A stretch of 61,513 nt of DNA from Acidimicrobiia bacterium (GTDB lineage: Bacteria; Actinomycetota; Acidimicrobiia; IMCC26256; JACDBD01), in NCBI GenBank assembly GCA_036005605.1, contig DASYQJ010000236.1, forward strand, positions 1-61,513. Reading direction: 5' to 3'. Positions 461-35,080 of this stretch are shown here, piece after piece. Position 1 is the stretch's first letter; each line of letters starts with the position of its first letter. Below the pieces are notes generated by a model that saw only the letters and a list, made by a program, of their open reading frames with translations, did no database searches and was not told the DNA's origin. The position numbers and the translations under genes are program-made.

Positions 461-2857
461 CCGGTCGTCGCCTCCGAGCTGCGGACGGCGCGTGATCGTC
501 TCATCGGTGATCGCAGCCGCCGCGGGGCGGAGTTCGGGCGCGCGCTCGCGGAGCTGCTCGACGGCGCACTGACGCGATCGCTCGCCTCCGCTGCCGAAGC
601 CGTCGAAGGACGGCTGTCGCTGGCGGCGGTCGGCTCCTACGGCCGAGCCGAGCTGAGCCCGGGCTCGGATGTCGACGTGGTGTTGCTGCACGACGGCCAC
701 ACGAACGTGGCCGAGGTCGTCGACCGCCTCTGGTACCCGCTCTGGGACGCCGGGTTCGTGGTCGGCCATGCGATCAACACCGTGAAGGAGGAGGTCGCGC
801 TGGCCGAGCGTGACCTGCACGCGCTCACCGCGTGGCTGGACGCCCGCCACGTCGCGGGCGATTCCGAGCTGTTCGCCGACGGCGTCGCGCGCATCCGCCG
901 GCTCGCACAGCGGCGCCGCGCCCGGCTCGTCGACGACCTGCGCTCGGCCGCCGAGGTCCGGCGCGAGAAGTTCGGGCTCGTCGCCGAGATGCTCGAACCC
1001 AACCTCAAGGACGGCAGCGGCGGGTTGCGGGACGCCCAGTCGCTGTCGTGGGCGGGATGGACGCTCGGTGAGCCCGGCGGCTGGCAGGCGCTCGTCGAAC
1101 AGGGCTATCTCCGCGACGGCGATCCCGGCCGCCTGGCCGCGGCGATCGGGCGCCTGCTCGACGTTCGCGTCGCGCTGCACCGGGTCACGGGCAGCCGGTC
1201 CGACGTGCTGACGCTCCAGGAGCAGGATGCGATCGCCGTCGAGACCGGCGCCGCGGACGCCGACGCCCTCGTGCGCGACCTGGCGGGCGCGGCGCGCGCG
1301 ATCGCGTGGCTCGTGGCGGACGTCTTCGCCCGGCTCGAGGCGACCGAGCGCGGGCCGGGTGGGCGCGCCTCGCGGCGCGACCGCGACCTCGGCGGAGGCG
1401 TCGTCGTACGCGACGGGCGCGTCGCGTTCTCCGCCGATGCTCTCGTCGACGCGACACTCGTCCTGCGGGCGGCCGCCGCCGCGGCGGAGCTGGGCGCGTC
1501 GTTCGACCGCGCATCGCTCGAGCGTTCGAAGGAGATCGGCGTCGTCGAGTGGGACGCCGAGGCCCGCGATGCCTTCGTGTCCCTCCTGCGCGCCGGGCGC
1601 GGCGCGGTGCCGGTGTTCGAGGCGCTGGACCAGGCCGGCGCGCTGACGCTCCTGCTGCCCGAGTGGGATCGCATTCGGTCGCTCCCGCAGCGCAACGCGT
1701 ATCACCGCTTCACCGTCGACCGGCACCTGCTCGAAGCGGTCGCGGAGTGCGCGGCGCTGCTCGACGACGATGGGTTCGACGGCGAGGTGGCGCGCCGCGC
1801 CCGCGCTGACCTGCTGCTCCTCGCCGCCCTCCTCCACGATCTCGGGAAGGGGATGGAGGGCGACCACTCGGTGGTCGGCGCCGAGGCCGCCGTGGAGCTC
1901 GCTCGTCGCATCGGCGTCGACGAGCCCGGCGTCGCCACGCTCGACTGGCTCGTGCGCCACCACCTGGTGCTCGCCGAGACCGCCACCCGGCGCGACCTGT
2001 CGGAAGAGGCGACGATCACCCGCTTCGGGCGTCTCGTGGGCACCTCCGAGCGGCTCGACCTGCTCTACGCGCTGACCGTCGGCGACTCGCAGGCCACCGG
2101 TCCCGCCGCCTGGGGGCCGACGAAGGCGGCGCTCATCCGCGAGCTGTTCGCGAAGACCGACAGCCTGTTCGAGCTGGGCGTCGTCGGTCCCGGACTGGAC
2201 GCGCACCGTCGCGACACTCTCGAGCGCCATCGCGCGCTGCTGGCCCGACGGGAGCTGGCGATCGACTGGAGCGACCGCGACGACGGCCTGCTCGAATGCG
2301 CCGTCGCCGCCCCGGACCGCACCGGGCTGCTGGCGCAAGTCGCCGGCGTGCTGGCGCTGTTCGGCTTCGACATCCGTGACGCGGCCGGTTACATCGCCGA
2401 CGGCATGGCGCTCGAGGTGTTCGACGGCGCCGACCACTACGGCCGGCTGGCCGAACAGGCGGGTCGCGACGCGGTCATAAACGTGTTGCGCAGCGTGTTG
2501 ACCGGCGAGCTGCCGCTCGCCGAGCAGCTGCGCGCCCGCATCCGTCGCTACCGGATCCCCGACCCGGGCGACGTGGCTGTGGTCGTCGACCAGGATGCAT
2601 CCCCCACGGCGACCGTCGTCGAGGTCCACGCCCCCGATCACGTCGGCCTGCTCGCGCAGGTGGCGTCGACGTTCGCCGACCTCGACGTCGACGTCCGCAC
2701 CGCGAAGGTCTCGACGTTGGGGGAGCGCGTCGTCGACGTCTTCTACGTGCACGACGCCGCCGGCGACAAGATCCTCAAGAAACTCACGCTCGATCAGCTC
2801 AAGGCGACGCTGATCGCGCGGCTGACGAGCGAGTACTGGCTGCCCGAGCCGACCTGA
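461..2857 (+). CDS. glnD: [protein-PII] uridylyl/adenylyl-transferase GlnD (start codon unresolved)
   Basis: It contains a nucleotidyltransferase motif (GSYGRAELSPGSDVDVVLL), an HD domain (HDLGKG) and two C-terminal ACT-like repeats. The stop is at 2855-2857. No ATG, GTG or TTG exists in frame between the glnK stop and the NTase motif (see finding). Confidence 0.85.
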   Translation, partial: PVVASELRTARDRLIGDRSRRGAEFGRALAELLDGALTRSLASAAEAVEGRLSLAAVGSYGRAELSPGSDVDVVLLHDGHTNVAEVVDRLWYPLWDAGFVVGHAINTVKEEVALAERDLHALTAWLDARHVAGDSELFADGVARIRRLAQRRRARLVDDLRSAAEVRREKFGLVAEMLEPNLKDGSGGLRDAQSLSWAGWTLGEPGGWQALVEQGYLRDGDPGRLAAAIGRLLDVRVALHRVTGSRSDVLTLQEQDAIAVETGAADADALVRDLAGAARAIAWLVADVFARLEATERGPGGRASRRDRDLGGGVVVRDGRVAFSADALVDATLVLRAAAAAAELGASFDRASLERSKEIGVVEWDAEARDAFVSLLRAGRGAVPVFEALDQAGALTLLLPEWDRIRSLPQRNAYHRFTVDRHLLEAVAECAALLDDDGFDGEVARRARADLLLLAALLHDLGKGMEGDHSVVGAEAAVELARRIGVDEPGVATLDWLVRHHLVLAETATRRDLSEEATITRFGRLVGTSERLDLLYALTVGDSQATGPAAWGPTKAALIRELFAKTDSLFELGVVGPGLDAHRRDTLERHRALLARRELAIDWSDRDDGLLECAVAAPDRTGLLAQVAGVLALFGFDIRDAAGYIADGMALEVFDGADHYGRLAEQAGRDAVINVLRSVLTGELPLAEQLRARIRRYRIPDPGDVAVVVDQDASPTATVVEVHAPDHVGLLAQVASTFADLDVDVRTAKVSTLGERVVDVFYVHDAAGDKILKKLTLDQLKATLIARLTSEYWLPEPT

Positions 2858-2874
2858 GGCTCGCCCTAGGCTCC

Positions 2875-2938
2875 GCGGCAACGGCGGCTTTGCCGACCGT
2901 TGCCGCAAAGCTGGAGCTTGCGACGGCGACGAAAGGAG
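2875..2938 (+). promoter_or_regulatory. conserved hairpin+SD leader element, copy A
   Basis: P1 hairpin is GCGGCAACGG-CGGC-TTT-GCCG-A-CCGTTGCCGC (2875-2906). P2 is AAGC-TGGA-GCTT (2908-2919). A GCGACGGCGACG box is followed by the SD AAAGGAG (2932-2938). It aligns base for base with 6433-6495 and 32967-33029. Confidence 0.7.
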
Positions 2939-3687: not shown

Positions 3688-4215
3688 TCAGCCAGCGGCG
3701 TCTTCGAGCTCGCGCATCGTGTACAGCGCGCGCAGCTCGACGTCGACCTCGGCCAGGTTCTTCGCGCCGCCCGCCTCACGGTCGATGACGCACACGGCGT
3801 GCTCGACGAGGGCGCCCCGCTCGCGCAGATCACCGCACGACGTCACGACCTGCCCGCCCGACGTCACGACGTCCTCGACCACCGTGAGACGACGTCCGTC
3901 GAGCTCGCCGCCCTCGGCGAGGCGGCAGGTCCCGTAGGTCTTCGCCTCCTTGCGCACGAACATCGCCGGCAACCCGGTCAGCTGCGAGAGCATCGTCGCC
4001 AGCGGCACGCCGCCGAGTTCCAGCCCGGCCAGCGCGTCCGTGGCGGGCGGGAGCAGCGGCACCAGCGCCTCGCCGATCGATCGCAACAGCCACGGATCAG
4101 CCTCGAACAGGTACTTGTCGAAGTACTCGTCGCTGATCGCGCCCGAGCGCAGGCGGAACTCGCCTGTGAGGTGCGTCCGCCGGTAGACGGTCCGAGCCAG
4201 CTCGTCGCGGTTCAT
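3688..4215 (-). CDS. pyrE: orotate phosphoribosyltransferase
   Basis: 175 aa starting MNRDELARTVYRRTHLTGEFRLRSGAISDEYFDKY. The PRPP-binding motif is LTVVEDVVTSGGQ. The upstream part of track ORF 3688-4491 is Arg/Pro/Ser-rich junk. Confidence 0.9.
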   Translation of the reverse strand: MNRDELARTVYRRTHLTGEFRLRSGAISDEYFDKYLFEADPWLLRSIGEALVPLLPPATDALAGLELGGVPLATMLSQLTGLPAMFVRKEAKTYGTCRLAEGGELDGRRLTVVEDVVTSGGQVVTSCGDLRERGALVEHAVCVIDREAGGAKNLAEVDVELRALYTMRELEDAAG

Positions 4216-4755: not shown

Positions 4756-4956
4756 ATGCGCGGATCTCGACTCCTGACGATCTTCGCCGCCTCCGCCGTC
4801 GCGCTCGCTGCCGTCGCCGGAACAGCGTGCGGCGGAAGCGACGACGACCACAGCTCCCTGAGCAAGTCCTCGTTCGCGAAGCGGGCGAACGCGCTGTGCT
4901 CGAAGGCGCGGAACTCCTTGAAACCAACGACATCGCTAGGCTCGCCGCATGACTGA
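4756..4956 (+). CDS. small putative secreted protein or lipoprotein (66 aa)
   Basis: MRGSRLLTIFAASAVALAAVAGTAC-GGSDDD is a signal-peptide-like N-terminus with a Cys after the hydrophobic core. It overlaps the amidase start by 8 nt. Short and unverified. Confidence 0.35.
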   Translation: MRGSRLLTIFAASAVALAAVAGTACGGSDDDHSSLSKSSFAKRANALCSKARNSLKPTTSLGSPHD

Positions 4957-6382
4957 ATTGTGGGAGCACGATGCGTGGGAGCTCGCCGATCGCGTCCGTG
5001 CCGGTGAGCTGAGCGCCCGGAACATGCTGGAGCTCTCGCTGGCGCGGATCGAGCGTCTCGATCCGAGGCTCAACGCCGTGTGCTTCCTCGACCCGGATCG
5101 GGCGTGGGCCGACGCCGAGCGCGTCGACCAGCGCGTCGCCGCCGGCGACGACCCGGGCCCGTTCGCCGGTATCCCCATGGGTGTCAAGGAGCTCGCCCAG
5201 GTGCAGGGTTGGCCCGACACGAACGCGTCGGTGCCGTACGCCGAAGCCGGCGCCGTCGCCGAGTTCGACTGCGCCGAAGTGGCGCGCCTGCGCGAAGCCG
5301 GCGCCGTGCTCGTCGGGCTCACCACCGCGCCCGAGCACGGCGTGGTCAGCTACACCGCCAGCAGGCTGCACGGCGTGACCCGCAACCCTTGGAACCTGGA
5401 GCGCACACCCGGCGGCTCGTCGGGCGGGTCGGCGGCATCGGTGGCGGCCGGCGTGTTCCCCGCGTGCACCGGCAGCGACGGCGGCGGGTCGATCCGCATC
5501 CCGTCGTCGTACTCGGGCCTGTTCGGCATGAAGACCACGTTCGGGCTGCTCGGTGTGGGGCCAGAGCCGTTCAACTACTCGATGACGTCGGTGCACGGTC
5601 CGATCGTGCGGTCGGTGCGCGACGCCGCCCGCTATCTGGACGCGACGGCCGGCCCCACACCCACCGACCCGACATCGCTCCCGGCACCGCCGGTCCCGTT
5701 CGAGGATCTCGTCGCATCTGGCGAGGCAACCGAACGTCTCCGGGGGAAGCGCGCCGCGTGGACGTCGACCCTCGGCTACGCGGGCACCGATCCCGAAGTC
5801 GAGAAGGTCGCGCACGACGCGGCGATGTCGCTCGTCGCCGAAGCAGGCCTCGAGCTCGTCGACATCCCCGTCGAGATGCCCAAGCCCGGCGTCGCATGGG
5901 GATTGTTGTCGTCGCTGAACACGGCCGCCTTCCATCTCGACTTCGAGAGCCAGCACCTCGACGAGCTCGACGAGGTGCACCGCGCCGGTGTCGAGCTGAT
6001 GATGAACCTCCGACCCGGCGGCTTGTACAAGGCGATCCGCCGTCGCCACGAGCTGATGGTCGCGTCGGCACGCATCTGGTCGGACATCGACGTGCTCCTC
6101 ACGCCGACGACGCCTACGACCGCCTTCCGGGCCGAGGGGACGCTCAGCGGCACCGTCGCGGGCCGCGAGGTGAACCTCATGGGCTTGTCGGCGGCGTTCA
6201 CGGCGCCGTTCAACATGACGGGCCAGCCGGCGGCGAGCATCCCCGTCGGGCTCGTCGACGGTCTACCCGCTGCGCTCCAGGTCGTGGCGGCCCGCCACGG
6301 CGACGACCTGTGCCTCGGTGCCGGCGCTCTCCTCGAGCGCCTGCGGCCGTGGCCGAAGTTCGCGCCGCTCGCGTACGAGTAA
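4949..6382 (+). CDS. amidase (amidase-signature family)
   Basis: 477 aa with the AS-family core GGSSGGSAASVAAG...GSDGGGSIRIPS. Confidence 0.9.
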   Translation: MTELWEHDAWELADRVRAGELSARNMLELSLARIERLDPRLNAVCFLDPDRAWADAERVDQRVAAGDDPGPFAGIPMGVKELAQVQGWPDTNASVPYAEAGAVAEFDCAEVARLREAGAVLVGLTTAPEHGVVSYTASRLHGVTRNPWNLERTPGGSSGGSAASVAAGVFPACTGSDGGGSIRIPSSYSGLFGMKTTFGLLGVGPEPFNYSMTSVHGPIVRSVRDAARYLDATAGPTPTDPTSLPAPPVPFEDLVASGEATERLRGKRAAWTSTLGYAGTDPEVEKVAHDAAMSLVAEAGLELVDIPVEMPKPGVAWGLLSSLNTAAFHLDFESQHLDELDEVHRAGVELMMNLRPGGLYKAIRRRHELMVASARIWSDIDVLLTPTTPTTAFRAEGTLSGTVAGREVNLMGLSAAFTAPFNMTGQPAASIPVGLVDGLPAALQVVAARHGDDLCLGAGALLERLRPWPKFAPLAYE

Positions 6383-6422: not shown

Positions 6423-6432
6423 TAACATCCAC

Positions 6433-6495
6433 GCGGCGACGACGGCTTTGCCGATCGTCGCCGCAGAGCCGGAGCTTGCGACGGCGCCAAGGAGG
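6433..6495 (+). promoter_or_regulatory. conserved hairpin+SD leader element, copy B
   Basis: P1 is GCGGCGACGA-CGGC-TTT-GCCG-A-TCGTCGCCGC (6433-6464). P2 is GAGC-CGGA-GCTT. The box GCGACGGCGCC precedes the SD AAGGAGG (6489-6495). A TTG start follows at 6500. Confidence 0.7.
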
Positions 6496-7741: not shown

Positions 7742-7760
7742 CCGGCCTAGGGTCGGGGTC

Positions 7761-9101
7761 GTGGCCACCAGAGCCGACGACCCCACTGCGGAGGCGACCG
7801 ATCTCCTACGCGACCTGATCCGCAACCAGTGCGTCAACGACGGCCGCGTCGAGTCGGGGCAGGAAACCAAGAGCGTCGACCTGCTCGGCAACTACCTCGA
7901 GGGCGCCGGCCTCGACCTGGAGCGCTACGAGCCCCAGCCCGGCCGCAGCAGCCTCGTCGCCCGCATCGAGGGGAGCGACCCGAAGGCGCCGTCGCTGCTC
8001 CTGATGGGGCACACCGACGTCGTACCGGTGAACCCGGACGGGTGGAGTCGCGATCCGTTCGGCGCCGAGATCGTCGACGGGTTCATCTGGGGGCGCGGCG
8101 CAGTCGACATGCTCAACGAGACCGCCACGATGGCGCTCGCTTTCCGGCGGCTCGCCGACTCCGGCTTCAAACCGCGTGGCACGCTCACCTACCTCGCCGT
8201 CGCCGACGAGGAGGCGCTGGGCACGTGGGGCGCCAAGTGGCTGGTAGAGAACGAGCGCGACGCCGTGTACGCCGACTACGTGCTGACCGAATCGGGCGGC
8301 TTCCAGATCCCCACCCCCGGCGGCGCCCGCCTCCCCGTGATGGTCGACGAGAAGGGGACGTACTGGTCGAAGCTCACCGTGAAAGGCACGCCTGGGCACG
8401 CGTCGCAACCCTTCCGCACCGACAACGCCGTGGTCACCGCGGCCGAGGTCGTCCGACGCCTGCACGAGTACCGGCCCCCGACGCGGATCCACGACACATG
8501 GCGCGGGTTCGTCGAGGGCATGGAGTACCCGCCCGAGTTCCGCGACGCGCTTCTCAAGGACGACGAGCTGCGCGACTTCGCCGGCACCCTGCCGCTCGGC
8601 CTGTCACGAGTCGTGTACTCGTGCACGCACACGACGTTCGCGCCAACCGTCATCCACGGGGGCACGAAGACGAACGTGATCCCGGACCAGGTCGACATCC
8701 AGGTCGACATCCGCACGCTCCCCGGTGAAACCGAGGAGGACGTCCACCACCATTTGCGGGAGGCGCTCGGCGACCTGTACGTCACCGTCGAGATCGAGGG
8801 GAATGACGATCCGTCGACGGCGTCGCCGATCGACACCCCGTTGTGGGACACGCTCTCGACGGTCAGCGGACGGCTCGTCGAGGGGTCGGCGCTCGTGCCT
8901 TTCGTGATGGTCGGCGGGACCGACAACCGGTTCTTCCGCCGCGCCGGCTCGGTCGGCTACGGCTTCGGCTTGTTCAGCCGGCGCCTCACGTTCGAGGATT
9001 ACGCCACGATGTTCCACGGCAACGACGAGCGCATCGACCAGGAATCGCTCGGCTTGTGCACCGCGCTGTGGGAAGAAGTCGCGAAGGAGCTGCTCGCCTA
9101 G
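7761..9101 (+). CDS. M20/M25/M40 family metallopeptidase
   Basis: LLLMGHTDVVPV...WSRDPFGAEIVDGFIWGRGAVDMLNE is the typical M20 metal-binding and catalytic region. GTG start at 7761, in frame with track ORF 7380-9101. Confidence 0.9.
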   Translation: MATRADDPTAEATDLLRDLIRNQCVNDGRVESGQETKSVDLLGNYLEGAGLDLERYEPQPGRSSLVARIEGSDPKAPSLLLMGHTDVVPVNPDGWSRDPFGAEIVDGFIWGRGAVDMLNETATMALAFRRLADSGFKPRGTLTYLAVADEEALGTWGAKWLVENERDAVYADYVLTESGGFQIPTPGGARLPVMVDEKGTYWSKLTVKGTPGHASQPFRTDNAVVTAAEVVRRLHEYRPPTRIHDTWRGFVEGMEYPPEFRDALLKDDELRDFAGTLPLGLSRVVYSCTHTTFAPTVIHGGTKTNVIPDQVDIQVDIRTLPGETEEDVHHHLREALGDLYVTVEIEGNDDPSTASPIDTPLWDTLSTVSGRLVEGSALVPFVMVGGTDNRFFRRAGSVGYGFGLFSRRLTFEDYATMFHGNDERIDQESLGLCTALWEEVAKELLA

Positions 9102-11601: not shown

Positions 11602-11658
11602 GGATGGTGATCCTAAATCCCCGCGATGACGCGCTCAGCCGTCTGTCATGCTCGCGTC

Positions 11659-12435
11659 ATGCCCATCTTCGACGGGGACGTCCTGCGCGCTCGCGGGCTC
11701 GTCAAGCAGTACAAGCGCATCCGAGCCGTCGACGGCATCGACCTCACGGTCGGCGCCGGTGAGCGCGTCGCGCTTCTCGGGCCCAACGGCGCCGGCAAGA
11801 CGACGACCCTCCTCATGCTCCTCGGTGTCGTCACGCCGGACACCGGTTGGGTCGAGGTCACCGGGTACCGGCTGCCCCGTCACCGCAGCGCCGCCGCCGC
11901 GCGCGTCGGGTTCGCCGCCGGGTACCTGCCGCTGCCCGAGCGGCTGCGCGTCCGCGAGTTCCTGTGCCTCTTCGGGAAGCTCTACGGGCTCCACGACCCG
12001 ACCCCTCAGGTCGAAGCCGGGCTCGAGCGGTTCGGCATCACCCACCTCGGCGACGCCATGGGCAACGAGCTCTCCTCGGGCCAGCGGACGCTGGTCGGGA
12101 TCGTGAAGGCGGCACTGCACGGCCCGGCGCTGCTGATCCTCGACGAGCCCACGGCGTCGCTCGATCCCGACGTCGCGCTGAAGGTCCGCACGGGGCTGAA
12201 CCGGCTGTGCGCCGAGGACGGCGCCGCCCTCCTCGTGACGAGCCACAACATGGTCGAGGTGGAGCGACTCTGCGACCGGGTGGTGTTCATCTCCCAGGGG
12301 CAGATCGTCGCCGACGGCCGCCCCGGCGACGTCGCGGCCCGCTTCGGCCGGGACGACCTCGAGGGCGTGTTCCTGCACCTGGCCGAAGAGCGCCAGGAGC
12401 GCGTGCCCGAGCAACGGAGAAGGAGGGGAGCGTGA
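11659..12435 (+). CDS. ABC transporter ATP-binding protein
   Basis: Walker A GPNGAGKTTT, signature LSSGQR, Walker B LLILDEPT. I chose the ATG at 11659 (MPIFDG...) within track ORF 11626-12435. Confidence 0.9.
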   Translation: MPIFDGDVLRARGLVKQYKRIRAVDGIDLTVGAGERVALLGPNGAGKTTTLLMLLGVVTPDTGWVEVTGYRLPRHRSAAAARVGFAAGYLPLPERLRVREFLCLFGKLYGLHDPTPQVEAGLERFGITHLGDAMGNELSSGQRTLVGIVKAALHGPALLILDEPTASLDPDVALKVRTGLNRLCAEDGAALLVTSHNMVEVERLCDRVVFISQGQIVADGRPGDVAARFGRDDLEGVFLHLAEERQERVPEQRRRRGA

Positions 12436-13235: not shown

Positions 13236-13601
13236 TCAGAGGGCAGCGAGTACCAGGCCGACGGCGGCGGCGAACATCCCGGCCACGGTGCTGGTGGCGG
13301 CGTTGAGCGCCGCTTCATAGCGCGACCCTTCCTCGACGAGACGCACGCTCTCGAACGTGAACGTCGAGAAGGTCGTGTACGCGCCGACGAAGCCGGCTCC
13401 GATGACCGCCCTCGGCGCGTCGGTCAGACCGTGATACAGCGCCAGGCCCGTGAGGAAGCCGAGGACCAGTGATCCGCTCACGTTGATCACCCAGGTTCCC
13501 CACGGGAACACGCCTTGGACGCGGTCCTGCACGAACCCGTCGACGAGGTAGCGGCTCGCCGCCCCCAGAGCACCTGCGGTCGCGATGGCGAGGAGCATCA
13601 C
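13236..13601 (-). CDS. crcB: fluoride channel CrcB/FluC
   Basis: 121 aa with GTWVINVSGSLVLGF...GAYTTFSTFTFE, the CrcB signature. Confidence 0.9.
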   Translation of the reverse strand: MMLLAIATAGALGAASRYLVDGFVQDRVQGVFPWGTWVINVSGSLVLGFLTGLALYHGLTDAPRAVIGAGFVGAYTTFSTFTFESVRLVEEGSRYEAALNAATSTVAGMFAAAVGLVLAAL

Positions 13602-13942
13602 GAGTCGGCGGAACGCCCGACGTACTTCACGATCTCCACTTCCTCACGGACGACCAAACCCTCCGTGATCAGGTCGTCGAGTGTCGGGAGGAAGGCGTCG
13701 ATCCGGTCGACGCGGTCGACGATGATGACGACGACGGGCAAGTCCTCGGTCATGCGCAGGATCCGCGCCGTGTGAATGCGACTGGACGCCCCGAATCCCT
13801 CGAAGCCGCGCACGACGGTCGCGCCGGCGAGCCCGGCCCGGTGGGCTCGCTCGACGATCTCCGCATAGAGCGGTTTGTGCCCGTGTTGATCGCTCTCGCC
13901 GACGAAGATCGTCAAGCGCTCGCCCGATCCTTCCAACTTCAT
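13598..13942 (-). CDS. DUF190 (PII-like fold) protein
   Basis: MKLEGSGERLTIFVGESDQHGHKPLYAEIV...RGFEGFG. The ATG at 13942 overlaps the upstream crcB stop (ATGA). DUF190 genes are commonly embedded in crcB operons. Confidence 0.8.
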   Translation of the reverse strand: MKLEGSGERLTIFVGESDQHGHKPLYAEIVERAHRAGLAGATVVRGFEGFGASSRIHTARILRMTEDLPVVVIIVDRVDRIDAFLPTLDDLITEGLVVREEVEIVKYVGRSADS

Positions 13943-14355
13943 CGTGTGCTCCTTCGCCAAGCCAGCCGCAGTCGACCGGCCACGATCCCGAGATACACAG
14001 CTGCGCCACCTGCTGCCAAGCTGGCAAACACGTAGGCGATGCCGAGCGCGATGTGGCCGTTCCTGATCAGCAGATCAGCCTCGACGGAGAAGGTCGAGAA
14101 CGTCGTGTACGCGCCGAGCACCCCGATGGCGGCGAACGGTCGCACGTACCGCGTGGGTGGCCAGCGTTCGAGCACGACCGTCAACAGGAGCCCGAGCAGG
14201 AACGATCCCGACACGTTGATGCAGAAGGTCGCCCATGGGAAAGATCCGGGCGCGGCCGGGAATCGCTCGCTGAGCTCGTATCGGGCCGGGGCACCCAGTG
14301 CACCCCCGAGGGCCACGGCGACAACTGCTCCGAGGCGCCGGTCGGTCGTCGGCAA
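13939..14355 (-). CDS. crcB: fluoride channel CrcB/FluC (second paralog)
   Basis: 138 aa with FCINVSGSFLLG...GAYTTFSTFSVE. It has a TTG start at 14355, preceded by GAAGGUGGAG. Confidence 0.9.
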   Translation of the reverse strand: MPTTDRRLGAVVAVALGGALGAPARYELSERFPAAPGSFPWATFCINVSGSFLLGLLLTVVLERWPPTRYVRPFAAIGVLGAYTTFSTFSVEADLLIRNGHIALGIAYVFASLAAGGAAVYLGIVAGRLRLAWRRSTR

Positions 14356-14375
14356 GGCTCCACCTTCGCTGCGCA

Positions 14376-14430
14376 GGTAGGAGCCATCAGCCGGGAGCGG
14401 CGGTTCAGGCGAGCCCCATCGCCGCCCGGC
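14376..14430 (-). promoter_or_regulatory. fluoride riboswitch (crcB RNA motif)
   Basis: The minus strand reads GGCGAUGGGGCUCGCCUGAACCGCCGCUCCCGGCUGAUGGCUCCUACC. This matches the crcB-motif core as I recall it (GGCGAUGG.G.UCGCC..AAC.GC...GCUAAUGA.UCCUAC). It lies directly 5' of crcB. The 3' segment GGCUCCUACC can also pair with the SD region GGUGGAGCC. Confidence 0.85.
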
Positions 14431-14468
14431 AGCCTATCGACCGCCGGTGTCGTTGCGACTCTCGGGAT

Positions 14469-31911: not shown

Positions 31912-32949
31912 ATGCCCGCTGCGCCCGTCCCGCTCATCGACCCGTTCGATCGGCGGGTCAAGGACCTGCGCATCTCGATCACGGACCGGTGCAACTTCCG
32001 CTGCACGTACTGCATGCCGGCCGAGGGCATGAAGTGGCTTCCTCGCGAGGAGCTCCTCACCTACGAGGAGCAGGCCCGGATCGCCCGCGTGTGCGTCGAG
32101 CGGTTCGGGTTCGAGGCGATCCGCATCACCGGGGGTGAGCCGACCCTGCGGGCTCACCTCCCTCGCCTGATCACCATGCTCGCCCCCCTGGACGTCGACC
32201 TCGCGCTCACGAGCAACGGCGTGAAGCTGCCCGAGATGGCGCATGACCTCGCCGCCGCCGGGCTCCGGCGGATCAACGTCTCGCTCGACTCGCTCCGCCC
32301 CGACACGTTCACCGCGCTCACGCGCCGCGACGACCTCGAGCGCGTCCTCGCCGGCGTCGACGCCGCGCTCGACGCCGGTCTCGATCCGGTGAAGGTGAAC
32401 TGCGTCGTGATGAGAGGCGTGAACGACGACGAGATCGTCGACCTCGCCGCGTACGGACGCGCCAAGGGCGTCGGCCTTCGGTTCATCGAGTTCATGCCCC
32501 TCGACGCCGAGGGCACATGGTCGATGGACCAGGTCGTCCCCGCCCGGGAGATCCTCGATCGCGTCGATGCCGCATTCCCGCTCGAGGCCGAGGTCGCCCC
32601 CGGCGACACCGAGCCCGCCACCCGCTACCGCTACCGGGACGGCGCCGGCGACGTCGGGGTGATCCCGAGCGTCACCGAGCCGTTCTGCGACCACTGCGAC
32701 CGCGTTCGGGTGACCGCCGAGGGCAAGTTCCGGACGTGCCTGTTCGCGCTGGAGGAATTCGACCTGCGGGCGATCCTCCGGGACGGGGACGACGTCCACA
32801 ACGCCGACGACGTCCACGACGACGTTCAGATCGACGACAGACTCGCGTCCGAGATCGAGCGTGCGGTCGGGACGAAATGGGCCGGGCACCGCATCGGACA
32901 GGTCAATTTCGTGCGCCCCGCCCGGTCCATGAGCCAGATCGGCGGGTAG
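31912..32949 (+). CDS. moaA: GTP 3',8-cyclase MoaA
   Basis: The radical-SAM motif is CNFRCTYCMP. The C-terminal cluster is CDHCDRVRVTAEGKFRTCLF. Confidence 0.95.
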   Translation: MPAAPVPLIDPFDRRVKDLRISITDRCNFRCTYCMPAEGMKWLPREELLTYEEQARIARVCVERFGFEAIRITGGEPTLRAHLPRLITMLAPLDVDLALTSNGVKLPEMAHDLAAAGLRRINVSLDSLRPDTFTALTRRDDLERVLAGVDAALDAGLDPVKVNCVVMRGVNDDEIVDLAAYGRAKGVGLRFIEFMPLDAEGTWSMDQVVPAREILDRVDAAFPLEAEVAPGDTEPATRYRYRDGAGDVGVIPSVTEPFCDHCDRVRVTAEGKFRTCLFALEEFDLRAILRDGDDVHNADDVHDDVQIDDRLASEIERAVGTKWAGHRIGQVNFVRPARSMSQIGG

Positions 32950-32966
32950 CCCGTACACTCGCGCTC

Positions 32967-33029
32967 GCGGCGACGGCGGCTTTGCTGACCGTCGCCGCAG
33001 AGCCGAGCTTGCGAGGGCGACCAAAGGAG
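32967..33029 (+). promoter_or_regulatory. conserved hairpin+SD leader element, copy C
   Basis: P1 is GCGGCGACGG-CGGC-TTT-GCTG-A-CCGTCGCCGC (32967-32998). P2 is GAGC-CGA-GCTT. The box GCGAGGGCGACC precedes the SD AAAGGAG (33023-33029). The moaC TTG is at 33034. Confidence 0.7.
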
Positions 33030-33033
33030 TGCT

Positions 33034-33540
33034 TTGTCGGCGTCCGAGTTCACGCACCTCGACCCGCTCGGGCGGGCGCGCATGGTGGACGTCTCCTCCA
33101 AGGAGGCGACGCACCGCCGGGCCGTCGCCCGCTGTCGGGTGTACATGGAGCCCGAGACGACCTCGAAGATCGCCGCCGGGGCGATCAGCAAGGGCGACGT
33201 GTTCGCCGTCGCCCGCGTCGCCGGCATCCAGGCCGCCAAGCAGACACCGAACCTGTTGCCGTTGTGCCATCCGCTCCTCGTGGGGTCAGTGTTCGTGAAC
33301 TTCCGGATCGAGGACAGCCACGTCGAGGTCGAGGCGCAGGTCGACACCGTCGACCGCACGGGTGTCGAGATGGAAGCCTTGACCGCGTGCGCGATCGCCG
33401 CGCTCACCATCTACGACATGTGCAAATCCATCGACCGCTCGATGACCATCGGCGAGCTCACGCTGTGGGAGAAGACCGGCGGCCGCTCTGGGATGTACCG
33501 CCGCCCGCTGCCCCTCGACGACGACGAATTGGGCATCTGA
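33034..33540 (+). CDS. moaC: cyclic pyranopterin monophosphate synthase MoaC
   Basis: HLDPLGRARMVDVSSK...IQAAKQTPNLLPLCHPL...GVEMEALTA are the MoaC signatures. Confidence 0.95.
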   Translation: MSASEFTHLDPLGRARMVDVSSKEATHRRAVARCRVYMEPETTSKIAAGAISKGDVFAVARVAGIQAAKQTPNLLPLCHPLLVGSVFVNFRIEDSHVEVEAQVDTVDRTGVEMEALTACAIAALTIYDMCKSIDRSMTIGELTLWEKTGGRSGMYRRPLPLDDDELGI

Positions 33541-35006: not shown

Positions 35007-35080
35007 GGGGGTGTAGCTCAGTCCGGTAGAGCGCTACGTTCGCAACGTAGAAGTCGTGGGTTCAAGTCCCATCACCTCCA
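35007..35080 (+). tRNA. tRNA-Ala (anticodon CGC)
   Basis: The cloverleaf folds by hand. The acceptor is GGGGGUG/CACCUCC with the G3:U70 Ala identity pair. The D arm is GCUC/GAGC. The anticodon stem CUACG/CGUAG carries loop UUCGCAA. The T arm is GUGGG-UUCAAGU-CCCAU. The discriminator is A, and CCA is not encoded. Confidence 0.95.

Follow-up and report, generated by a model that had tools for sequence, protein, structure and literature searches.

A dispersed hairpin repeat in the moaA-moaC spacer of an uncultured soil Acidimicrobiia bacterium, probably an insertion between the promoter and start codon of an ancestrally leaderless gene

The stretch of DNA analysed here (61,513 nt, referred to as the window) is from an Acidimicrobiia bacterium and carries the genes moaA and moaC in tandem, separated by a spacer of 84 nt that runs from the moaA stop codon TAG (32947-32949) to the TTG start codon of moaC. 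The 70 bases before moaC at 32967-33036 consist of a structured core, which belongs to a family with a 58-nt unit, and a Shine-Dalgarno (SD) tail. A preliminary description of this DNA had placed a repeated element in the 84-nt spacer ahead of moaC at TTG 33034 and had taken it as the moaC leader (5' UTR and SD), and both the coordinates and the leader assignment were confirmed. The 3' end of moaA (32790-32852) contains an 18-nt direct repeat, apparently in frame (CGACGTCCACAACGCCGA and CGACGTCCACGACGACGT), that looks like a recent internal duplication, while a tRNA gene (35007-35080, forward strand, Rfam, 70.6 bits) is located just 3' of the Moco gene cluster. Feature coordinates are collected in Table 1.

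Table 1. Positions of genes, repeat copies, empty sites and remnants in the window and in related loci (L numbers)
Feature	Position	Strand	Basis or context
moaA (GTP 3',8-cyclase), upstream gene	31912-32949	+	Pfam Radical_SAM 3.5e-35, Mob_synth_C 2.6e-32
TACACT, -10-like hexamer of TANNNT type	32954-32959	+	7 nt 5' of the P1 base
Copy C, repeat core	32965-33021	+	Covariance-model match, 73.1 bits
Copy C, P1 hairpin (32 nt)	32967-32998	+	Folding; covariation in the family
Copy C, apex-linker complementarity	32978-32985 with 32997-33004		Alignment columns 14-22 with 35-43
Copy C, P2 small hairpin	33002-33018	+	GCC 33002-33004 pairs with GGC 33016-33018
Copy C, SD tail AAAGGAG	33023-33029	+	Sequence reading; 4 nt 5' of the moaC start
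moaC, start TTG 33034	33034-33540	+	Pfam MoaC (PF01967) 1.4e-54
Copy A, core	2873-2930	+	3' of glnD stop at 2857; 5' of NUDIX hydrolase GTG 2944
Copy A, flanks	TAGGCT 2867-2872 upstream; SD 2931-2938	+	Sequence
Copy B, core	6431-6488	+	3' of amidase stop 6382; 5' of MBL-fold hydrolase TTG 6500
Copy B, flanks	TAACAT 6423-6428 upstream; SD AGGAGG 6490-6495	+	Sequence
Empty site, leaderless type TAGGGT-N7-GTG	7748-7763	+	Close relative L067 has a copy at 683-741
Empty site, CATGCT-N6-ATG	11647-11661	+	L067:4666-4723 has a copy (85 bits)
Core-loss remnants leaving an SD leader	L116:~3960-4000, L119:~410-452, L091:~600-640, L100:~1440-1470		
Convergent-stop copies, examples	L039:4011-4080, L068:3674-3798, L081, L082, L111		

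The P1 hairpin of the copy in the spacer, termed copy C, was folded with a 5' arm at 32967-32980, a UUU loop at 32981-32983 and a 3' arm at 32984-32998 that includes a bulged A (32988), with a single G-U pair between G32979 and U32986. The P2 loop at 33005-33014 is the invariant GAGCUUGCGA, and G33015 is unpaired because its partner base has been deleted. The box of copy C differs from that of the other copies (GCC-GAGCTTGCGAGGGC compared with GCCGGAGCTTGCGACGGC) by one base fewer and a C-to-G change. Both differences had been noted in the preliminary description, which assigned the deletion to the P2 loop; a base is indeed missing, but it is the partner in the P2 5' arm and not a loop base, the orthologous copy in a related locus (L114) having kept GCCC...GGGC. 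The C-to-G change was present as described and is one half of a covarying P2 pair (44-55) that switches between G-C and C-G (GCCG/CGGC and GCCC/GGGC) in 10 sequences of the 126-copy alignment. The TACACT hexamer upstream of P1 is host-derived and lies outside the repeat, as the same hexamer (TACACT or TAGACT) precedes moaC in relatives without the element. A sigma-70 consensus scan of the spacer, which does not cover actinobacterial promoters with only a -10 element, found no match, and there were no terminator-like sites in the region 32800-33100, where P1 is followed by AGAGCC and no U tract.

Exactly three copies of the element, all on the forward strand, were located in the window by a 28-nt P1 pattern with at most 3 mismatches (3 matches compared with 0.00 expected from 100 shuffles). 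The covariance model scored copies A, B and C at 82.6, 84.5 and 73.1 bits and found no further copies in the window, so that the earlier recognition of three copies of one element stands on both searches. No empty allele was seen at the site of copy A in the soil-metagenome DNA runs compared with the window. The locus L067 is 94-97% identical to the window, yet carries within 8 kb two copies that the window is without. Frameshifts in otherwise conserved genes of MFD-series MAGs were observed in L067 (765-2091) and L076 (4640-5165) and are probably assembly indel errors, which makes the start-codon calls beside the element in these two loci uncertain. Elsewhere in the window, on the reverse strand, a fluoride riboswitch (RF01734, 52.7 bits, 14371-14432) was identified 5' of two small tandem ORFs (13598-13960 and 13236-13601) that are putative crcB genes by size and position.

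A search of one genome per bacterial species with an exact two-block pattern taken from the invariant loops matched more than 111 genomic stretches. Among the matches listed, every one fell in one of 19 MAGs that carry the label Acidimicrobiia or Actinomycetota, and several of these MAGs had 9-11 stretches each. The core occurs more than 126 times in the 19 MAGs; 126 copies, 117 of them distinct, were extracted and aligned, and a covariance model built from this alignment gave 136 matches in 719 kb of carrier loci. The repeat unit of approximately 58 nt contains a 14-bp P1 and a 4-bp P2 with an invariant 10-nt loop, and in leader-class copies the core is followed by a purine-rich SD tail. In four soil metagenomes containing the organism of the window, assembler depth over 2873-2930 was approximately 340-2290 versus roughly 10-30 over most flanks, a core depth roughly 50-200 times that of the flanks. 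Dozens of contigs with differing flanks join exactly at 2873/2874 and 2930, which identifies the 58-nt core as the shared unit. The family is repeated on the order of a hundred-fold in these soil communities. The viral contigs and plasmids searched contained no copies. Copies C and B had no Rfam family match at the gathering threshold or at E<=10, only noise that was mainly miRNA-type hairpins, and a literature search for a described equivalent returned analogues (MIRU, REPIN) and not this family. The family is an undescribed, dispersed small non-coding repeat of an uncultured soil Acidimicrobiia clade.

Across the 117 distinct copies, ten of the fourteen P1 pairs had changed on both sides, and for P1 and P2 together 77 cells were compensated and 93.6% of cells were paired. 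None of 500 shuffles reached any of the observed measures, and slid controls were 12-55% paired. Wobble pairs of the G-U or U-G type (66) exceeded A-C or C-A mismatches (17) across the P1 and P2 pairs, indicating that the constraint acts on the strand in the sense of the downstream gene, as RNA or as single-stranded DNA, and not on a double-stranded protein site. The linker between the hairpins has three length or sequence variants (A-AA, A-GA and AGGA), and a leader peptide was rejected since these indels break any frame and leave no reading frame conserved across copies. These linker indels, together with the compensatory changes and the G-U wobbles, agree with the preliminary view that conservation acts on nucleic-acid structure and not on a peptide. 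All six frames of the element consensus, read by eye, are free of stop codons. The loops GGCUUUGCC and GAGCUUGCGA were nearly invariant while the P1 stem drifted with compensation, an invariance partly imposed by the search pattern, which fixed 21 positions.

Two further pairings were considered. An alternative pairing of the box with the P1 3' arm had been proposed in the preliminary description, and plain complementarity does exist, but the helix between the P1 3' arm and the GCGACGG box had 0 compensatory changes and its 88.4% of paired cells equalled the shuffled mean. A complementarity of 8 nt links GGCUUUGC at the P1 apex with GCARAGCC, which spans the linker and P2 arm. It can pair in 98% of copies, one side being fixed by the search pattern and the sole variable pair being U-A or U-G, and could represent an alternative helix or else an inverted repeat that is now vestigial.

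Of the 126 copies, 75 (60%) precede an SD and the start codon of a long ORF with high GC3, and in 57 of these 75 leader-type copies the distance from core to start codon was 12-16 nt. A TANNNT hexamer starting 6-16 nt 5' of the P1 base was present at 49 of the leader-type copies (65%) versus 6 of the 51 others, where the background rate is 0.0004 per position. This enrichment persisted at copies without an upstream co-directional gene (18 of 32) and after hexamers whose TA formed part of the upstream stop codon were dropped. The mycobacterial -10 motif is TANNNT centred 7-12 bp 5' of the transcription start site (TSS), and no -35 motif is conserved (PMC3898074); from this spacing, the predicted 5' end of the transcripts is at P1 or a few nt into P1. 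About half of the leader-type copies, like copy C, are located in a short spacer after a co-directional gene. The element is found preferentially between a -10 hexamer and a start codon, pointing the same way as the gene that follows.

Genes located 3' of the copies were unrelated to one another and included ffh, trmD, clpC, gltX, scpA, prs, def, dapB, proC, aroH (chorismate mutase), a FabZ-like gene and others. The N-termini of 75 downstream proteins were listed, and the twenty proteins scanned had twenty unrelated functions and did not form a functionally coherent set. Sixteen copies (13%) end close to a convergent gene instead, with the stop codon of that gene only 5-6 nt beyond the core (tail GAC-NR-TCA). 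A few direct tandem copies were found (L068 and L039) and copies were otherwise single. In L021 (~4830-4870) and L047 (~150-225), which are orthologous positions in two MAGs, a copy adjoins a tRNA gene on the opposite strand. A gene between an inverted pair of copies in L076 was considered as a transposase and rejected as its ORF translation looks by eye like a redoxin.

The moaC locus was compared among 80 metagenome loci encoding MoaC proteins with 77-99% identity. In 72 of the 80 the element was absent and the start codon, ATG in 38 and GTG in 34, was positioned 6-8 nt after a -10-like hexamer, which was TACACT in 39 loci, TAGACT in 32 and TACGCT in one. The closest relatives, L112 (99%) and L113 (98%), were both empty and read TAG-CCCG-TACACT-CGCGGTC-GTG. 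Judged from these sequences, moaC without the element is arranged as a leaderless gene with its own promoter, and the separation of moaC from moaA by that promoter is ancestral rather than created by the element. The element was found at moaC only in the window, in L114 (96%) and in L121 (89%, with the lower stem broken), and a badly decayed copy was present in L115. At the same site L116 and L119 carry a remnant, 'GCGGCGAC-CGAAGGAG', that leaves a short SD leader and is attributed to deletion between the internal direct repeat GGCGAC, and remnants of this deletion type were also found at other genes (L091 and L100). A minority P2 variant and the tail CAAAGGAG are common to all copies at the moaC site, pointing to a single ancestral insertion.

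The empty allele was also found in metatranscriptome contigs of two soil studies. These pass cleanly from 32967 to 33035, skipping 67 nt without overlap at the junction, which places the insert within the old start codon (G^TG) and makes TTG the new start. The contigs with the empty allele run through the -10 box. Neighbour-joining trees, built without support values for moaC and for the 3' end of moaA, place the empty L112 and L113 among filled alleles, between the window and L114, implying either clean excision or allele exchange by recombination. Since 72 of 80 relatives lack the element, the two closest included, copy C is interpreted as having inserted at a leaderless moaC, which thereby acquired a leader with a hairpin and an SD.

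A blast of the flanks of every copy against all loci identified about 15 orthologous pairs in which both sites were filled and at least 9 pairs of a filled and an empty site. In five pairs the empty allele was leaderless in type, its start codon following the hexamer by 6-8 nt. Four of these had a canonical TANNNT (scpA, aroH, a gene of L023/L088, and window 7748-7763 compared with L067), and the fifth, at window 11647 compared with L067, had the non-canonical hexamer CATGCT. Insertions were also found inside an existing 5' UTR (L013 and L051 relative to L025) and just after a stop codon (L073 relative to L022). The copy at L088:250-307 is in frame within a coding sequence assigned by eye to the SRAP/YedK-like family and is read through, while L023 is empty near 5217.

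Mobility of the element was deduced only from presence and absence, because no transposase was found in the loci searched and the at least 9 filled and empty comparisons showed neither terminal inverted repeats nor a duplicated or fixed target. The element ends are direct and not inverted repeats (GGCGACGG ... GACGGCGAC), the overlap at the moaC junction is 0, and left flanks differ between copies (CTC, CGG, GCT, ACC, GCC, TGC and GAC). The seamless insertion without duplication is consistent with, and not specific to, the hairpin elements derived from IS200/IS605 (PATE). A tblastn search with two Y1 transposase queries gave a best E of 0.6 in the 1.2 Mb of loci covered. Orthologous copies in different species were 93.9% identical in the core, or approximately 90% without the positions fixed by the pattern, a high identity to which ascertainment contributes. 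Identity around the core was lower, at 76% over the 60 nt on its 5' side, 74% over the 20-nt tail and 83% over the coding sequence that follows. Changes in the stems of orthologous copies were mostly compensated. These patterns suggest selective constraint on resident copies, whose role may go beyond supplying an SD, while the moaC site itself shows decay.

Taken together, copy C is probably a copy of the dispersed repeat that was inserted between the promoter and the start codon of an ancestrally leaderless moaC, where it now supplies the ribosome binding site, and is not a Moco switch. Transcription of moaC would now start at or within a few nt of the P1 base, giving the mRNA a 5'-terminal stem-loop, and translation would proceed through the SD of the element from the new TTG in place of leaderless initiation. 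The element would thereby alter the initiation of moaC expression and probably the stability of its mRNA as well, and would sense no Moco, GTP or pathway signal. It may later decay, or lose its core by deletion between the GGCGAC repeats to leave a plain SD leader.

The reading of the element as a metabolite- or nucleotide-sensing, riboswitch-like leader that controls moaC apart from moaA, as first proposed for this spacer, is largely refuted and retains hardly any probability. Its location directly 5' of the SD and start codon, hairpins supported by covariation, and window copies ahead of NUDIX hydrolase, MBL hydrolase and MoaC genes would fit such a role, but the element precedes dozens of unrelated housekeeping genes, also abuts the 3' ends of convergent genes (13% of copies) and in one case lies inside a coding sequence. 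A perfect stem of 14 bp in which few unpaired bases are conserved does not resemble an aptamer, the alternative pairing shows no compensation beyond the shuffled control and no Rfam family matched. The comparison of relatives' spacers that the preliminary description had called for bears on the same point: the element was missing from 72 of 80 moaC loci, which are of the leaderless type with their own -10 box, and from both closest relatives, yet the family occurs at more than 100 other loci before unrelated genes, and a dedicated control device for moaC is not supported. The same description had held that this is not the Moco riboswitch, in line with the lack of an RF01055 match at the gathering threshold in the window and at E<=10 around copies C and B. 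Very improbable, too, is that the repeat serves as a double-stranded operator bound by a dimeric transcription factor, or as an intrinsic terminator or attenuator in the moaA-moaC spacer. A long inverted repeat right after a -10 box is suggestive of either, but a stem sequence that is free to vary while pairing is kept, with G-U fourfold over A-C, is not expected of double-stranded DNA recognition, a U tract and terminator-like site are lacking, and copies are also found beside gene 3' ends and inside a coding sequence.

The high repetition of the family, its presence that varies between relatives and its hairpins kept by sense-strand compensation were observed directly, and two other explanations address how the repeat moves and why it is kept. 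One possibility, realistic though in our view unlikely, is an element akin to REP/REPIN or derived from IS200/IS605 that an HUH (Y1) transposase moves as single-stranded DNA, with hairpins that are DNA recognition structures and not functional RNA. Seamless empty alleles without target duplication agree with it, the strand-specific wobble bias fits single-stranded DNA as well as RNA, and high copy number with vertical inheritance across species is as described for REPINs (PMC3116915, PMC3337134). Against it, a GTAG-type 5' motif is absent, copies are singletons or rare direct tandems and not inverted doublets, REPs do not usually show so strong a link to the orientation of the gene 3' of them, and the Y1 queries returned nothing better than E = 0.6, a weak argument as the search covered 1.2 Mb of loci and not whole genomes. 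A host-domesticated global leader, in which one RNA-binding protein or small RNA binds the loops GGCUUUGCC and GAGCUUGCGA and the carriers including moaC form one post-transcriptional regulon, is improbable. It would account for nearly invariant loops on a stem that drifts with compensation, for orthologous copies better conserved than their flanks and for an 8-nt apex-linker complementarity pairable in 98% of copies, but the pattern itself fixed 21 positions and so contributed to the loop invariance, presence flips between close relatives at many loci including essential genes, and copies at moaC decay or are deleted.

A joint reading of these observations is offered as a speculation to which we attach a low probability. 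A mobile 5'-UTR cassette would target the melted region of promoters (-10 to +1), possibly by single-strand transposition into the open-complex bubble, and would convert leaderless to SD-led genes genome-wide. The host would retain resident copies as a shared leader to which one factor binds, and internal deletions would leave ordinary SD leaders. If this cassette reading is true, the element would supply SD leaders to a clade in which leaderless genes are abundant.

For the moaC locus, the preferred reading of an inserted dispersed repeat removes a false lead, as the spacer element says nothing on Moco regulation. New to the field is a repeat family with a covariation-supported structure, sited between the -10 box and the start of leaderless genes and bringing its own ribosome binding site. 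Related genomes present a natural series of three states at the same gene (leaderless, hairpin with SD, and plain SD), which suggests a route for switching the mode of initiation and makes the costs and benefits of leaderless and SD-led initiation directly testable. The element also breaks short-read assemblies and will mislead motif-based riboswitch searches.

Among known systems, the 5' stabilising stem-loops of the ompA type are gene-specific and evolved in place. The predicted moaC transcript would resemble these in that its 5' end coincides with the base of a stable hairpin and an accessible SD comes next, whereas the present family is a mobile cassette for which stabilisation is putative. 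Rickettsia palindromic elements are hairpin repeats able to sit in frame inside coding sequences, as the copy at L088:250-307 does, but in-frame insertion is exceptional in this family (one clear case) and the leader position is the rule. Correia elements (CREE/NEMIS) of Neisseria are small repeats in 5' regions that enter mRNAs and alter the expression and processing of neighbouring genes, and they have terminal inverted repeats and a TA target duplication and can create promoters. The present family, in contrast, has neither inverted repeats nor TA duplication and uses the host -10 box rather than creating a promoter. The terminal inverted repeats and target-site duplication that define MITEs were not found in the family, and unlike PATE elements derived from IS200/IS605 there is no fixed 4-5 nt target directly 5' of the element.

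REP and REPIN sequences are short, hairpin-forming, high-copy repeats outside genes that are vertically inherited and persist across species (PMC3116915, PMC3337134). The family is similarly a high-copy, short palindromic repeat found mostly outside genes. It differs from REP/REPIN-RAYT systems in having no inverted doublets (no close inverted pairs were seen) and no GTAG motif, and no RAYT was found in the 1.2 Mb searched with two Y1 queries; its copies are upstream of genes in a fixed orientation whereas REPs are mainly at 3' ends. By analogy of position and behaviour, the closest counterpart appears to be the mycobacterial MIRU. These are small actinobacterial repeats, mobile in appearance, that insert at start codons in gene orientation with gene expression preserved (PMC12548453). 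MIRU use an internal ORF with a -4 overlap and form VNTR arrays, whereas the present family is without a conserved frame, has hairpins and an SD at normal spacing, is mostly single-copy per site, and typically occupies the slot between the -10 box and the start of leaderless genes. Like MIRU, its copies are located at start codons and oriented with the gene, with 60% ending 5' of a start codon, mostly by 12-16 nt, and the moaC junction falling inside the old GTG.
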